A stretch of DNA of 7,321 nucleotides from a virus (Duplodnaviria > Heunggongvirae > Uroviricota > Caudoviricetes). Below are positions 2,347 through 7,321 of this stretch, piece by piece (positions within the stretch are counted from its first letter, which is position 1; every line of letters starts with the position of its first letter). The position numbers were made by a program, and so were the translations under genes. The DNA lies in IMG/VR virus record IMGVR_UViG_2541047691_000019, positions 1 to 7,321 of that record. One strand, 5' to 3'. The notes beneath the pieces were generated by a model, which was not told the origin of the DNA, ran no database searches, and saw nothing but the letters and a program-made list of their open reading frames with translations.

Positions 2347-2364
2347 ATTTTATAACCCCAATAC

Positions 2365-2391
2365 GGGCGCCAGAAATGGTGCCTTTTTTAT
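2365..2391 (+). terminator. Candidate intrinsic terminator between J and lom
   Basis: GGCGCC (2366-2371), loop AGAAAT, GGTGCC (2378-2383) gives a 6-bp stem with one G.U pair, followed by TTTTTTATT (2384-2392). Weak stem; tentative. Confidence 0.3.
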
Positions 2392-2413
2392 TGCAGAAAA
2401 GCGAGAGGTAATT

Positions 2414-3013
2414 ATGCGTAAAGTTTGTGCAGTCATTTTGTCCGCAGCCATCTGTCTGTCCGTATCCGGTGCGCCTGCATGGGCGTCTGAACATCAGTCC
2501 ACACTGAGCGCGGGGTATCTTCATGCCCGTACGAACGCTCCCGGCAGCGATAATCTGAACGGGATTAACGTGAAATACCGTTATGAGTTTACGGACGCGC
2601 TGGGGCTGATTACGTCCTTCAGTTATGCCAATGCTGAAGATGAGAAAAAAACGCACTACAGCGATACCCGCTGGCATGAGGATTCTGTGCGTAACCGCTG
2701 GTTCAGCGTGATGGCGGGGCCATCTGTGCGCGTGAATGAATGGTTCAGCGTGTATGTGATCGCTGGTGTGACTTACAGCCGTGTGTCGACTTTTTCCGGG
2801 GATTATCTCCGTGTAACTGACAGCAAGGGGAAAACGCACGATGTGCTGACCGGAAGTGATGACGATCGCCACAGCAACACGTCTCTGGCGTGGGGAGCTG
2901 GCGTGCAGTTTAACCCGACCGAATCCGTGGCCATTGACCTTGCTTATGAAGGTTCCGGCAGTGGTGACTGGCGCACTGACGGTTTCATCGTGGGTGTCGG
3001 TTATAAATTCTGA
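2414..3013 (+). CDS. lom: Lom outer-membrane protein (Ail/Lom/PagC family 8-strand beta-barrel)
   Basis: 199 aa; N-terminal signal peptide MRKVCAVILSAAICLSVSGAPAWA; near-identical over most of its length to lambda Lom as I recall it (…SEHQSTLSAGYLHARTNAPGSDNLNGINVKYRYEF…DWRTDGFIVGVGYKF). RBS GAGAGG at 2403-2408, ATG at 2414. Position J-lom-stf matches lambda. Confidence 0.92.
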   Translation: MRKVCAVILSAAICLSVSGAPAWASEHQSTLSAGYLHARTNAPGSDNLNGINVKYRYEFTDALGLITSFSYANAEDEKKTHYSDTRWHEDSVRNRWFSVMAGPSVRVNEWFSVYVIAGVTYSRVSTFSGDYLRVTDSKGKTHDVLTGSDDDRHSNTSLAWGAGVQFNPTESVAIDLAYEGSGSGDWRTDGFIVGVGYKF

Positions 3014-3039
3014 TTAGCCAGGTAACACAGTGTTATGAC

Positions 3040-3066
3040 AGCCCGCCGGTTCAGGCGGGCTTTTTT
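3040..3066 (+). terminator. Rho-independent terminator downstream of lom
   Basis: AGCCCGCC (3040-3047), loop GGTTCA, GGCGGGCT (3054-3061): a GC-rich 8-bp stem followed by TTTTTT (3061-3066). Confidence 0.7.
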
Positions 3067-3077
3067 GTGGAGTGGAT

Positions 3078-5144
3078 ATGGCAGCAGTAAAAATCTCAGG
3101 TGTGCTGAAAGATGGTGCGGGAAAACCAATACAGAACTGCACTATTCAGTTGAAGGCAAAGCGTAACAGCACCACGGTACTGGTGAACACGGTGGCCTCT
3201 GAAAATCCGGATGAAGCCGGGCGTTACAGCATGGATGTTGAGTATGGCCAGTACAGCGTCATCCTGCTGGTTGAAGGTTTTCCGCCTTCACATGCCGGGA
3301 CCATTACCGTCTATGAAGGTTCCAGACCAGGTACGCTGAATGATTTTCTCGGTGCCATGACGGAGGATGATGTTCGTCCGGAGGCACTGCGCCGTTTTGA
3401 GCTGATGGTGAATGAAGTGGCACGTCATGCCGGAGCGTCATCACAGAGTGCAGCGGCGGCAAAGAAATCCGAAACGGCAGCAGCCTCATCGAAGAATGCG
3501 GCGAAAACCTCAGAAACGAATGCAGCTAACAGCGCACAGGCGGCAGCGGCCTCGCAGACTGCATCGGCAAACTCCGCGACAGCAGCCAAAAAATCAGAAA
3601 CCAACGCGAAAAATAGCGAGACAGCCACAAAGGCCAGCGAAAAAAACGCAAAATCCAGCCAGACGGCAGCGAAAACCAGTGAGACGAATGCCAAAGACAG
3701 TGAAGCCAACGCAAAGGTGAGCGAAACAGCGGCGGCGAACTCGGCGAAAGCATCGGCAGCAAGCCAGACGGCAGCAAAAGCAAGTGAAGATGCTGCCAGA
3801 GAATACGCAAACCAGACAGCAGAGCCGTACAGATATGTTTTACAGCCGCTGCCGGATGTGTGGATACCCTTTAATGATTCGCTGGATATGATTACGGGCT
3901 ATTCTCCGGGTTATAAAAAAGTGAAGATTGGTGATAATGTGGTTCAGGTTGCCAGTGATAAACAGGTTAATTTCAGTCGCGCATCAACGGCAACATATAT
4001 CAACAAATCTGGCGAACTGAAAACGGCGGAAATTAATGAGCCACGATTTGAGTGTGATGGCCTGCTTATTGAGGGGCAAAGAACGAACTTCTTCCCGAAC
4101 AGTACAGACCCTTCGAAGTGGAATAAGTCAACTTCACTGGACGTTACAGAAACAGGCACAGATAGTTTCGGGTTTAATTATGGCCGGTTTGTCGTACAGG
4201 ATTCGATTGTTGGTACAAGTAAAGCGCATACCATTATCGGACTGTATTCGAGTACCGGAGGGGTTGATACTTCAGGGGACGAAAAGTATGTAACTATATC
4301 CTGTCGGGTAAAAAGTGAAGTTGATAATATCGCCGTTCGTATTTTATTTGAACATTATGATGGGGAGGTAAGGACATCAATAGGAGCAGCAAGCCTGAAC
4401 CTTACCACCCGCATAATTAGCAAGACAGGTCAGACAAGCCGTGTTACAGCAAGGTCTGTTAAGGATGATGCAACTGGCTGGATATTTTTTGAGGCTACAT
4501 TAAAAGCAGATACAACAGAAAATACGGTTGGCGGTTTTGTCCAGTATTCTCCGGATACAGGGCAGATGGTTGCATCAGGGGATTATCTCGATGTAACCAC
4601 TCCACAGATTGAGGCTGGTACAGGCGCATCATCTTTTATTGTTACGGGGACGGCACCGGTAACGCGGGCAAGCGATATGGTTACAGTTCCGATTAAGAAT
4701 AATCTTTATAATCTTCCTTTTACGGTTCTTTGTGAGGTACATAAGAACTGGTATAAAACGCCAAATGCAGCGCCGCGTGTTTTTGACACATACCGGCATC
4801 AGGCAGATGCGGGGATCGTAATGGGGTTTGGTTCATCAGGTGGGTACGACGGTTTTCCGTATTGTGATATTGGTGGTTCAAACCGACGAATAAATGAAAA
4901 TGCCGGGCTGAAAAAAATGCTTATTGGTATGCGGGTAAAGTCCGAACGGTCCACATGTGTAGTCAGTAACGGTAAGTTAAGCAGCGAAACTAAAACCAAA
5001 TGGGAATATATCCGGAGTACAGCAACCATTCGCATTGGTGGACAAACTACAGCAGGATTACGCCATTTATTTGGGCATGTGAGGAATTTTCGTCTCTGGC
5101 ATAAAGAGCTAACAGATGCGCAGCTTGGGGAGGTTGTGGAGTGA
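3078..5144 (+). CDS. stf: Side tail fibre protein Stf (lambda Stf-like N-terminus, repeat stalk, divergent distal domain)
   Basis: ATG at 3078 is preferred over the in-frame GTG at 3072 because MAAVKISGVLKDGAGKPIQNCTIQLKAKRNS matches the lambda Stf N-terminus and GGAG lies 5 nt upstream. 688 aa; central Ala/Ser/Thr/Lys repeats (KxSETNAK); conserved block AREYANQTAEPYRYVLQPLPDVWIPFNDSLDMITG…; C-terminus …LRHLFGHVRNFRLWHKELTDAQLGEVVE typical of enterobacterial prophage side tail fibres. TGA at 5142-5144. Confidence 0.88.
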   Translation: MAAVKISGVLKDGAGKPIQNCTIQLKAKRNSTTVLVNTVASENPDEAGRYSMDVEYGQYSVILLVEGFPPSHAGTITVYEGSRPGTLNDFLGAMTEDDVRPEALRRFELMVNEVARHAGASSQSAAAAKKSETAAASSKNAAKTSETNAANSAQAAAASQTASANSATAAKKSETNAKNSETATKASEKNAKSSQTAAKTSETNAKDSEANAKVSETAAANSAKASAASQTAAKASEDAAREYANQTAEPYRYVLQPLPDVWIPFNDSLDMITGYSPGYKKVKIGDNVVQVASDKQVNFSRASTATYINKSGELKTAEINEPRFECDGLLIEGQRTNFFPNSTDPSKWNKSTSLDVTETGTDSFGFNYGRFVVQDSIVGTSKAHTIIGLYSSTGGVDTSGDEKYVTISCRVKSEVDNIAVRILFEHYDGEVRTSIGAASLNLTTRIISKTGQTSRVTARSVKDDATGWIFFEATLKADTTENTVGGFVQYSPDTGQMVASGDYLDVTTPQIEAGTGASSFIVTGTAPVTRASDMVTVPIKNNLYNLPFTVLCEVHKNWYKTPNAAPRVFDTYRHQADAGIVMGFGSSGGYDGFPYCDIGGSNRRINENAGLKKMLIGMRVKSERSTCVVSNGKLSSETKTKWEYIRSTATIRIGGQTTAGLRHLFGHVRNFRLWHKELTDAQLGEVVE
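3438..3813 (+). repeat. Imperfect in-frame tandem repeats encoding the Stf low-complexity stalk
   Basis: Recurrent DNA units such as AAA(A/T)C(A/C)AG(T/C)GA(A/G)AC(G/C)AA(T/C)GC(G/A)AAA encode repeated (A/T)AK(T/K/N)SETNAK motifs. This tract produces spurious highly basic or hydrophobic ORFs in other frames (3412-3720 +, 3425-3709 -, 3526-3810 -). Confidence 0.6.
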
Positions 5145-5419
5145 GAGATTTCACGTTGCGTTTCAGTGATAAAGCAGATTTCAGGGCATTTCTCAGGAAA
5201 CTTAACTGGGAAGAGGACGAAGAGCTGCAGAATGCCGTTCTGGTTGATGAGATTGGTTTTACGTTCAGGGAGACAGATGTTCCTGATGACGGAGAACCAG
5301 AATACACGCGAAACGAAGGGTACTTTGTTAATATCCGTCTTCTTGACGATGGATTTGATGATTCCGTGTTCCGTGAGTGGGTGGTTACACCAGAGCGCCC
5401 GCTCAGGGAGTGGTTTTAA
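5141..5419 (+). CDS. Hypothetical acidic 92-aa protein, translationally coupled to stf (possible cognate fibre chaperone/accessory protein)
   Basis: GTG start at 5141 overlaps the stf stop (GTGA); strong SD GGGGAGG at 5127-5133, 7 nt upstream. Product MRDFTLRFSDKADFRAFLRKLNWEEDEELQ… is acidic with protein-like composition. I do not recognise it as lambda Tfa. Confidence 0.5.
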   Translation: MRDFTLRFSDKADFRAFLRKLNWEEDEELQNAVLVDEIGFTFRETDVPDDGEPEYTRNEGYFVNIRLLDDGFDDSVFREWVVTPERPLREWF

Positions 5420-5428
5420 GGATAGCAG

Positions 5429-5650
5429 ATGGATATCACGTCGATACTTCATGCGCTTTGTGCCGTAGCGGTGCAGGTACTGGCTGGTCTTTTTACCGGA
5501 AACTGGGCTTACGGGGCGATAGCCGGTTGTACGTTCTTCATTGCGCGTGAACACACCCAGGCAGAATATCGCTGGATTGAAATGTTCGGGCATGGCAAGC
5601 GTATGAATATGCCGTGGTGGGGCGTGCCTGCGAATCTGGCTGTTGGTTAA
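5429..5650 (+). CDS. Hypothetical 73-aa small hydrophobic (membrane?) protein
   Basis: ATG at 5429 with SD AAGGA at 5417-5421, 7 nt upstream. Two hydrophobic segments (ITSILHALCAVAVQVLAGLF; WAYGAIAGCTFFIA) then a Trp-rich polar tail. TAA at 5648-5650. No family recognised. Confidence 0.4.
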   Translation: MDITSILHALCAVAVQVLAGLFTGNWAYGAIAGCTFFIAREHTQAEYRWIEMFGHGKRMNMPWWGVPANLAVG

Positions 5651-5669
5651 TCGTGGGTGAAAAAGGTGA

Positions 5670-5798
5670 GCAGTATATGCAACGAAGGAGGAAACATCAT
5701 TGCTGGCGGCATGGAAGGCATGCAGGGTGTTGCTGAACCGTGTTGATACATCAACTGCACCTGATATTGAGTGGCCGGAAGAACCAGACACAATGTAA
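5670..5798 (+). pseudogene. tfa: Tail fibre assembly protein Tfa, C-terminal remnant (about 42 codons; N-terminal ~150 codons absent)
   Basis: Frame 0 after the TGA at 5667-5669 encodes [42 protein letters not shown], matching the conserved C-terminus of lambda Tfa as I recall it (…[32 protein letters not shown]…). No ATG start and no N-terminal domain. Confidence 0.65.
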
Positions 5799-5913: not shown

Positions 5914-6162
5914 TTAGTGAACAAACCACTCGTCAGCAGACTCCCAGGTATCTTTCAGAGTCTCCTGAACAAATGTTTTTGCAGAATCCTTATCTGCTGT
6001 GCGTGTAACAGAAAGCCCATCATTGCTGGTGGCTTTTACGATCACTTCTACATCGTCATAACGCTTACTGATGCGCCGAGTTAATTCTTCCTTTAACGCA
6101 TCCACAGCACCGTTTGGCATTTTAGTCATTTTCTCTTTGGCTATGCAGATTTCAATACGCAT
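5914..6162 (-). CDS. dinI: DinI family protein (DNA-damage-inducible protein I homologue; modulator of RecA coprotease activity)
   Basis: 82 aa, [35 protein letters not shown]…[15 protein letters not shown], matching E. coli DinI in length and in the MRIE…GA(I/V)DAL…(E)TWESAD(D/E)WFV motifs. RBS GAGGGA upstream; LexA-box promoter immediately upstream. Confidence 0.88.
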
Positions 6163-6175
6163 AAAAATCCCTCTA

Positions 6176-6195
6176 TACTGTGTTTGTATACAGTG
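6176..6195 (-). promoter_or_regulatory. LexA operator (SOS box) 1, proximal to the dinI-like start
   Basis: TACTGTGTTTGTATACAGTG: perfect CTGT-N8-ACAG (6178-6193) with an AT-rich spacer, against consensus TACTGTATATATATACAGTA. Lies between the putative -10 and the RBS. Confidence 0.75.
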
Positions 6196-6197
6196 TT

Positions 6198-6227
6198 ATT
6201 TTTATCTGTATAAATAAACAGTGTCAA
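6198..6227 (-). promoter_or_regulatory. Sigma-70 promoter for the dinI-like gene
   Basis: On the - strand: TTGACA (complement of 6222-6227, a perfect -35 that overlaps the int stop codon at 6224-6226), a 17-18 bp spacer, then TAAAAAT (complement of 6198-6204) as the -10. Start codon is about 35 nt downstream. Confidence 0.6.
6204..6223 (-). promoter_or_regulatory. LexA operator (SOS box) 2, within the promoter spacer
   Basis: ATCTGTATAAATAAACAGTG: perfect CTGT-N8-ACAG at 6206-6221. Sits between the -35 and -10 elements of the dinI-like promoter. Confidence 0.7.
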
Positions 6228-7321
6228 GAGGTCTTGTTTCTGCTCTTTTGGAGTTCTTCAAAACGATTATGTAAAGATTTCGGATACAGTTCGGTATATA
6301 CCTGCCATAGCACGTTTAATGAACGATGCCCTGTAACTTGAGCGACTTCCTCAATACTAAAACCAGCCTCAAATAAGCGACTTGCCCCTTCTCTACGCAA
6401 ATCATGGTATCGCAGATCTTTAATACCTAATTTGCTTCTTACCCTCTGAAATCCTGCGGTAACAGAAGTGCTGTTATATGGAAAAATGAATTCTGATTTT
6501 TTGGGTTGGCGCTGGACGATATCCCAGGCTTCCCCAAGCAAGGCAACTTTCATATGGTTACCTTCCTTTTTACGTGGATCTTTCCTATCTCTTACTAGTA
6601 TAGATTTTTGTTCTTGGTCGAGATCTTCCCATCGTAACCGGCATACTTCTCCGATTCGCATACAGGACCACACAGAAAATTTGAGGATATCAACGAACGG
6701 AATTTTTGAGCATTTATGAGTAGATCGTTGTTGAAGGCCTTCAATGAGCATGTCCAGTTCATCAGATGCTGGTCTACGATTACGACGGTTTGATTTACCA
6801 ATCAAACCGAGTTTAAGTAGATATGGACGAGCGCTTTTCGCCGGGTTTGATGTGTAATTGATTCCGTATACAGGTTTTGCCGCATCCAGAACACTGCCAA
6901 GATAACTAACATCGTGGCTGACTGTTGCTGGGCCTGCACCAGCGTTGTTTCTTAGCCTGCAATGTTCAATTACGTCATTTTCTGTCAGTTCAGATAGTTT
7001 GATCGCGGATATGTCACTATCCATAAGCAGTTCCAGCACATATCTTTTAGTACGGCCTGCTTTACCTCCGGCATTTGGGTCATTTAAATATTTGTGTAGT
7101 AAGTCACGGACTGTAAGTCCATCAACAGCATTTGATGATGGAATGCCATATAGATCTAATTCCATCACTTTCTGTGCGCCCCATGTTTTGGCATGAGCAT
7201 GTTTAGGGAATGTTTTGCTTTCCCTGTAAGTGATAACACCTTTTTCTTTGATAATCACATTACAGCGATAGCGTGGTGTGCCATCGGATTTTAGTCGTTT
7301 CTCTATGTTATAGTACGCCAT
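6224..7321 (-). CDS. int: Phage integrase, tyrosine site-specific recombinase
   Basis: 365 aa. C-terminal catalytic-domain motifs: Arg in …CMRIGEVCRLRWEDLD…, HDLRREGASRLF (H-x-x-R) and a Tyr near the C-terminus (…GHRSLNVLWQVYTELY). Start codon is the final 3 bases of the window (complement of 7319-7321), so an upstream extension cannot be excluded. AT-rich relative to J and lom. Confidence 0.88.
   Translation of the reverse strand: MAYYNIEKRLKSDGTPRYRCNVIIKEKGVITYRESKTFPKHAHAKTWGAQKVMELDLYGIPSSNAVDGLTVRDLLHKYLNDPNAGGKAGRTKRYVLELLMDSDISAIKLSELTENDVIEHCRLRNNAGAGPATVSHDVSYLGSVLDAAKPVYGINYTSNPAKSARPYLLKLGLIGKSNRRNRRPASDELDMLIEGLQQRSTHKCSKIPFVDILKFSVWSCMRIGEVCRLRWEDLDQEQKSILVRDRKDPRKKEGNHMKVALLGEAWDIVQRQPKKSEFIFPYNSTSVTAGFQRVRSKLGIKDLRYHDLRREGASRLFEAGFSIEEVAQVTGHRSLNVLWQVYTELYPKSLHNRFEELQKSRNKTS

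Follow-up and report, generated by a model that had tools for sequence, protein, structure and literature searches.

Does the lom gene of a lambda-like prophage form an insulated unit with expression of its own, or is it carried along by the late operon into which it is inserted? This question is raised by a locus in which lom lies between J and stf, with a terminator-like hairpin on either side, and which the initial annotation read as an insulated, independently expressed moron. The whole stretch of DNA analysed here (the window) comprises 7,321 bases, and a prophage in the chromosome of E. coli ST95-32 matches it at 99.9% identity. The RefSeq genes for this match are gpJ, an Ail/Lom family protein and a tail fibre with prophage N-terminal domain, furthermore degraded tail-fibre-assembly fragments, a DinI-like gene and a tyrosine integrase adjoining dusA. 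Our own ORF and Pfam calls in the window agree with this annotation. The features are as follows:

31-2346, + strand: J, 3′ part (tail-tip gene, last late gene before the locus); Pfam Ig_J, Ig_J_second, Phage_Tail_Tip and Ig_GpJ_C, RefSeq gpJ
2365-2392, + strand: tJ, intrinsic-terminator motif of J; stem-loop 2365-2384, T-run 2384-2389, tail to 2392
2393-3065, + strand: lom cassette, 673 bp, absent from lom-less relatives; boundaries ambiguous by 1-3 T
2403-2409, + strand: lom RBS GAGAGGT, 4 nt before the ATG
2414-3013, + strand: lom CDS, 199 aa; Pfam PF06316
3040-3066, + strand: tlom, the cassette's intrinsic-terminator motif; stem-loop 3040-3061, T-run 3061-3066
3069-5144, + strand: stf (side-tail-fibre), RBS GGAG 3069-3072, ATG 3078; Pfam phage_tail_N 3e-67, RefSeq start
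5914-6162, - strand: DinI-like gene; Pfam DinI, 1e-19
6224-7321, - strand: tyrosine integrase; ORF and Pfam calls, RefSeq

The identity of the gene is clear. PF06316 (Ail_Lom) spans the whole Lom protein (E 2e-123, positions 1-199 of 199, 410 bits versus a curated cut-off of 23), and the identical protein is named Ail/Lom family in RefSeq. A signal peptide in codons 1-24 (MRKVCAVILSAAICLSVSGAPAWA, ending APAWA and followed by SEHQ) and a C-terminal aromatic residue, Phe (...GVGYKF), can be read directly from the translation. Solved chains homologous to residues 25-199 are OmpX (1qj8), Ail (3qra) and lambda Lom (9wso, E 2e-47). Lom thus has the predicted properties of an 8-stranded outer-membrane beta-barrel of the Ail/Lom family, with OmpX, Ail, PagC and Rck as relatives. 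Both the gene name and the separate RBS proposed by the initial annotation are borne out: the RBS GAGAGGT is present in front of the ATG, and the leader 2394-2413 shows no variation among 71 distinct relatives. The identity to lambda Lom amounts to 42%, the protein of the window being of a different allele class, and because of this low identity the adhesion results for lambda Lom transfer only loosely. A solved structure of lambda Lom (206 aa) exists as chain C of PDB 9wso; J and stf were searched for among the partner chains of this entry, and neither is present. Opposite to lom, an antisense ORF of 177 aa (2339-2872, - strand) has no Pfam match and was treated as spurious.

Each of the two gaps flanking lom contains a hairpin followed by a T-tract. 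The upstream hairpin (2365-2384) consists of GGGCGCCA-GAAA-TGGTGCCT, followed by TTTTTATT, and has 8 pairs, a loop of 4 and six T, with an energy of -13.8 kcal/mol (z -3.0). The downstream hairpin (3040-3061) consists of AGCCCGCC-GGTTCA-GGCGGGCT, followed by TTTTT, and has 8 pairs, 7 of them G-C, a loop of 6 and six T, with an energy of -18.2 kcal/mol (z -3.6). Here the earlier description of a strong intrinsic terminator after lom is fully supported, all the more as this terminator is located inside the variable segment and travels with lom (see below). For the upstream site the hairpin and the T-tract stand as described, but the term weak does not: one G-C pair of the relatives is a G.U pair in the window, and the resulting -13.8 kcal/mol is only slightly below the strength in most relatives (-15.7 kcal/mol). 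In Rfam, no family matches either hairpin; a match to Trp_leader at 2986-3068 with 21.7 bits was discarded as a mere resemblance between terminators.

Could the two motifs be functionless inverted repeats that arose by chance? A loose terminator scan of the window would permit this, as it delivered 7 sites versus 7.8 in shuffled sequences. However, when a strict definition was applied (a stem of 8 pairs, no fewer than 5 of them G-C, and T at 5 or more of the following 6 bases), the search of both strands of the 7.3-kb window left exactly two sites, namely the tJ and tlom motifs. Both are on the coding strand and they occupy the two intergenic gaps, one on each side of lom. Since 300 dinucleotide shuffles yielded 0.003 such sites per window compared to the 2 observed, the pair is non-random. 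In addition, the relatives preserve the structure although its sequence varies, and the chance reading can be regarded as effectively refuted.

The conservation of tJ was studied in 80 viral contigs with a Lom 90-95% identical to that of the window, together with annotated phages. Ten sequence variants of tJ were found, all of them paired completely (80/80 cells), and 2 pairs are changed on both sides. One compensatory change leads from G-C to A-U, with the G.U pair of the window as the intermediate, and the other from C-G to U-A. In this comparison, 1 of 500 shuffles reached the observed score. The T-tracts directly 3′ of the stems are conserved as well as the stems. At the position of tJ, lambda, Fels-1 and Stx1_14040 carry different stems, unrelated ones in lambda and Fels-1, each of them again followed by a T-tract. 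In seven loci (L015, L025, L039, L042 and 3 more), the loop is inverted from AGAAAT to ATTTCT. This inversion includes the closing bases (CCAGAAATGG to CCATTTCTGG) and keeps the stem, and represents a clean hairpin-loop inversion polymorphism.

The downstream motif tlom is nearly invariant in 56 loci and lambda, and it is near-identical also next to a third lom allele; the small variation that exists consists mostly of G.U changes. In 25 relatives another terminator takes the place of tlom, at the end of a longer spacer. In every version examined, a terminator is found directly ahead of the stf RBS. The loci that we refer to as type B (L008-L013 and others, n=25) have a lom-stf spacer of about 150 nt, in which an extra strong hairpin without T-tract (ACGCAGGTTCATCC...GGGTGAACTGCGT) precedes a different terminator (AAGCCCG...CGGGCTTTTTTT).

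These data show both hairpins to be sequence-competent intrinsic terminators whose structure is maintained across relatives. A different function has to be weighed: the hairpins might mainly act as RNA 3′-end stabilisers or processing barriers in the long late mRNA and, instead of stopping transcription, determine how abundant its J, lom and stf parts are relative to one another. The compensatory changes in the stems would fit such a role, and it is established lambda biology that Q-modified polymerase is expected to ignore terminators in the sole phase in which the operon is highly transcribed. However, the T-tracts are as conserved as the stems, and a T-tract is needed for termination, not for protection against exonucleases. 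Furthermore, where the stem was built anew in independent lineages, a T-tract was built along with it. We consider stabilisation as the main function to be improbable and return to the hairpins as terminators.

To which gene does the upstream terminator belong? In the lom-less phage ev207, the same hairpin comes after the J stop, then TTTTTTATT and directly thereafter TGTGGAGTGAGTATGGCAG, the sequence that follows the downstream terminator in the window. Accordingly, the window minus 2393-3065 aligns colinearly with the J-stf junction of ev207 without any indel. Phage 21, likewise without lom, has the same hairpin between J and stf, and its record labels the hairpin 'terminator'. A contiguous lom-less junction was found in 29 phage records, classical phage 21 among them. 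Besides ev207 and phage 21, some 27 further records carry this hairpin between J and stf. Because tJ is kept unchanged in lom-less phages directly before stf, it is not part of the lom cargo; by this comparison it is the resident terminator of J. The previous statement that terminators bracket a lom cargo is therefore correct insofar as both are real and flank lom, but the upstream one is not a boundary element of the cargo.

The close relatives that differ in lom allow the variable segment to be defined more precisely. The phages mEp460 (JQ182728) and Ayreon (MF807953), with lom, and ev207, without it, agree in the stf start and, at 95-96% identity, in the J C-terminus. Compared with the window, mEp460 and Ayreon carry the same lom allele class (87-88% identity) and the same tJ and tlom, whereas the J receptor-binding domain is just 43-44% identical in the last 135 aa. 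A coupling of the lom allele to the J receptor domain, which we had considered, is weakened by this occurrence of one Lom class with two such different J domains. The third lom allele, in Stx1_14040, retains the outer stem of the upstream hairpin and TTTTTTATTG; divergence begins exactly after TTTTTTATTG, and the sequences come together again over the final ~60 nt of lom and in tlom. On the basis of these alignments, the exchangeable unit is RBS, lom and its own terminator, that is 673 bp directly after the tJ T-tract. On the left, exchange takes place at the tJ T-tract, and on the right at tlom or the 3′ end of lom. The lom-less junctions may be either ancestral or the product of a deletion between the two T-tracts.

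Two further loci with an unusual region around the lom 3′ end deserve mention. At 618-880 of phage D2 (L088, OM475427), the final ~40 codons of a lambda-type lom follow on the 3′ region of J, and the tlom behind them, also of lambda type, is still present. The locus clearly contains a deletional lom remnant, with the reservation that ambiguous bases are present at the joints and an assembly artefact is possible. The small RNA 24B_1, located downstream of lom in phi24B (PMC4426718), is absent here; its place is another lom-downstream region, 428 bp long, in short-tailed Stx phages.

A comparison with lambda itself (NC_001416, 18.9-19.7 kb, J-lom-stf (orf-401)) reveals the same gene order, a J-lom hairpin with T-tract and the same RBS GAGAGGT. 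Near-identity extends over the final ~60 nt of lom, through tlom and into the start of stf (144 alignment columns, 90%). In contrast, Lom (42%) and the J C-terminal receptor domain (41%) differ strongly from those of the window, and the lambda tJ stem is unrelated (CGUCCG-GGAA-CGGGCG followed by UUUUAUUAU, -9.7 kcal/mol). Moreover, the lambda T-tract runs into a TATTAT hexamer, which the T-tract of the window lacks. The lom-less phages ev207, phage 21, Tritos and Fels-1 share the J-terminator-stf frame, with a single terminator instead of two; in Fels-1, J is followed by one terminator and then by stf.

If lom was expressed independently, a promoter would be expected between J and lom, as the initial annotation did, although it found no convincing -35/-10 there. 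Our results agree with the latter observation and speak against the former expectation. Only 21 nt (GCAGAAAAGCGAGAGGTAATT), RBS included, separate the T-tract of tJ from the lom ATG, so that the cassette has no room for a promoter. A consensus scan revealed no + strand sigma-70-like site at 9 of 12 near lom. A PWM scan with spacer penalties and an extended -10 bonus gave a best + strand score of 5.9 in the 500 nt upstream of lom, compared to a window maximum of 11.2; nothing in this region rose above background, and the sites above the 99.9th percentile occurred in about the number expected by chance. Three candidates picked out by eye were set aside. TATAAC at 2351-2356 as a -10 element has no -35, and its start site would coincide with the base of the hairpin stem. 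Across the hairpin lies a sigma-54-like TGGYGC...TTGCA with the wrong spacing, 8 and not 5, and half of a PhoP-box-like motif, GGTTTA at 2185-2190, is present without a good second half. A conservation profile for a promoter hidden in J showed no clear island; low diversity inside lom itself was excluded as evidence, as the loci were chosen by Lom similarity and this value is biased. A non-consensus or activator-dependent lom promoter is possible and compatible with the sequence scans. Since neither space nor a site for a promoter was found, the notion of an independent expression of lom rests on the analogy to lambda and not on the sequence.

Morons are described by a set of properties (Juhala et al. 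2000; Cumby et al. 2012 for HK97/HK022, PMC3594210), and lom shares some of them. Presence or absence at the same site among close relatives is evident from ev207 compared to mEp460 and Ayreon and from the 29 lom-less junctions, and the factor-independent terminator of its own is tlom, inside the variable segment. An own promoter was not found, neither in the 21-nt space nor by the two sigma-70-type scans, and no distinct base composition is visible: the GC content is 53.8% for lom, 51.7% for the last 600 nt of J and 53.3% for the first 600 nt of stf. What remains of the insulated, independently expressed moron is therefore the presence/absence pattern and the terminator, while promoter, composition and the upstream hairpin as part of the cargo fall away. 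Like the HK97/HK022 morons (PMC3594210), lom is extra DNA between conserved late genes with its own downstream terminator, and like them it is dispensable for plaque formation, as reported for lambda lom (PMC10695390). The difference is that the lom of the window has neither a recognisable own promoter nor a compositional contrast.

Expression from the repressed prophage is a further moron property, and literature data on the expression of lom in lambda point in two directions. According to statements in PMC1151598 and PMC7067206, which cite Reeve & Shaw 1979 and Barondess & Beckwith 1990, lom is expressed in lambda lysogens. One array study did not detect lom in the lambda lysogen and described its promoter as uncharacterised and little known (PMC2147009). 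Passages in PMC12366544 and PMC9836094, both citing the ribosome profiling of Liu et al. 2013, report that lom is strongly increased late in infection, and a co-transfer of lom with a holin gene was noted as well (PMC9836094). Over-expressed Lom protects against lambda-vir and not against T7, and an anti-adsorption or exclusion role was suggested (PMC12366544).

Taken as a whole, the locus has the usual order of lambda-like prophages, J - tJ - lom - tlom - stf, in an E. coli ST95-type chromosome beside dusA, and we consider it probable that it is expressed in the following way. During lytic growth, RNA polymerase modified by Q would start from pR′ and read through tJ and tlom, as known from lambda. 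J, lom, stf and tfa would then be on one late transcript and Lom would be strongly made late. Read-through of both terminators is necessary because stf, with its RBS 3 nt after the tlom T-run, can be transcribed only through them. In the repressed prophage, unmodified polymerase would halt at tJ and tlom, and stray transcription would miss lom and stf. A lysogen-stage lom transcript would have to come from a promoter that is weak or depends on a factor and that lies upstream of tJ or overlaps it. Such a transcript would have to leak past this terminator and would be confined to lom by tlom. Termination efficiency and Q read-through are both adopted from lambda in this model; the Q/pR′ region lies outside the window.

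The main rival reading treats lom as a promoterless passenger of the late operon that is transcribed essentially only by Q-antiterminated read-through, with tJ silencing the prophage copy, and sees its main role late, in blocking non-productive adsorption of progeny or superinfection, and not in lysogenic conversion. Several observations speak in its favour: the cassette leader of only 21 nt without promoter, the lack of a promoter-like site upstream, the sense orientation of lom inside the late operon, the competent terminator directly ahead of it and a GC content equal to that of the flanks. The block of lambda-vir by over-expressed Lom and its sharp late rise (PMC12366544), as well as the failure of the array study to detect lom in the lysogen (PMC2147009), point in the same direction. 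On the other hand, lambda lom was repeatedly reported to be expressed in lysogens (PMC1151598 and PMC7067206, after Reeve & Shaw 1979 and Barondess & Beckwith 1990), and leaky termination at tJ would yield some expression from the prophage. We regard this reading as rather doubtful. It would imply a truly promoterless cassette, a Lom that is made mainly late and is near-silent in the prophage via tJ, and a selected function directed at phages, not at adhesion or virulence conversion. If it is true, the exchange of highly divergent lom alleles (~42% identity) between constant flanks would be the trace of an arms race in which receptor or adsorption specificity is at stake. Such an effect on adsorption has a parallel in another accessory gene.

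The exclusion gene cor is located downstream of the tail genes in phi80/N15/HK022-type phages, and its protein acts on FhuA. Both cor and lom are outer-membrane-directed accessory genes beside tail-fibre genes that affect adsorption, and the two proteins are unrelated.

The feature as such is already known: lom is annotated, and terminators are marked in the GenBank records of mEp460, Ayreon and phage 21, with both hairpins given as rho-independent terminators in mEp460 and Ayreon. As lom is a textbook accessory gene, the practical weight of our results is small. For the annotation of prophage cargo, they mean that the phrase 'bracketed by terminators' is not evidence of an insulated unit, because the upstream terminator is that of J and persists in phages without lom. 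A mobile unit that consists of RBS, gene and terminator without a recognisable promoter sharpens the question of how lom is transcribed in the lysogen, and it is in line with the recently proposed late action of Lom against the adsorption of phages.

The remainder of the window provided some minor observations. The integrase abuts dusA, so that the tail-fibre-gene end of the prophage is also its integrase end; the window ends exactly at the integrase start codon, and the region beyond is represented by L086 10410-11447. Inside stf (3750-5250), the GC content falls from ~0.55 to ~0.44, which points to mosaicism, with a distal fibre part of foreign origin joined to the conserved N-terminal domain. 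An antisense ORF of 330 aa opposite stf/tfa (4799-5791, - strand) has no Pfam match and is probably not a gene. Two RefSeq pseudogene fragments are located at 5429-5798 on the + strand, a hypothetical protein without C-terminus and a tail fibre assembly protein without N-terminus. The side-fibre assembly function of the prophage looks degraded, with stf itself intact. Among these degraded fragments, Rfam gives a match below its threshold to the candidate E. coli small RNA IS009 (5658-5755, + strand; 47 bits versus a gathering score of 117, E 1e-8). Finally, the best promoter-like site of the window precedes the DinI-like gene (TTGACA-18-AAAAAT, 6227-6198, - strand). LexA-box-like palindromes are found nearby, TACTGTGTTTGTATACAGT at 6176-6194 with a perfect CTG-N10-CAG and ATCTGTATAAATAAACAGT at 6204-6222, and the DinI-like gene beside the integrase (5914-6230, - strand) looks SOS-controlled.
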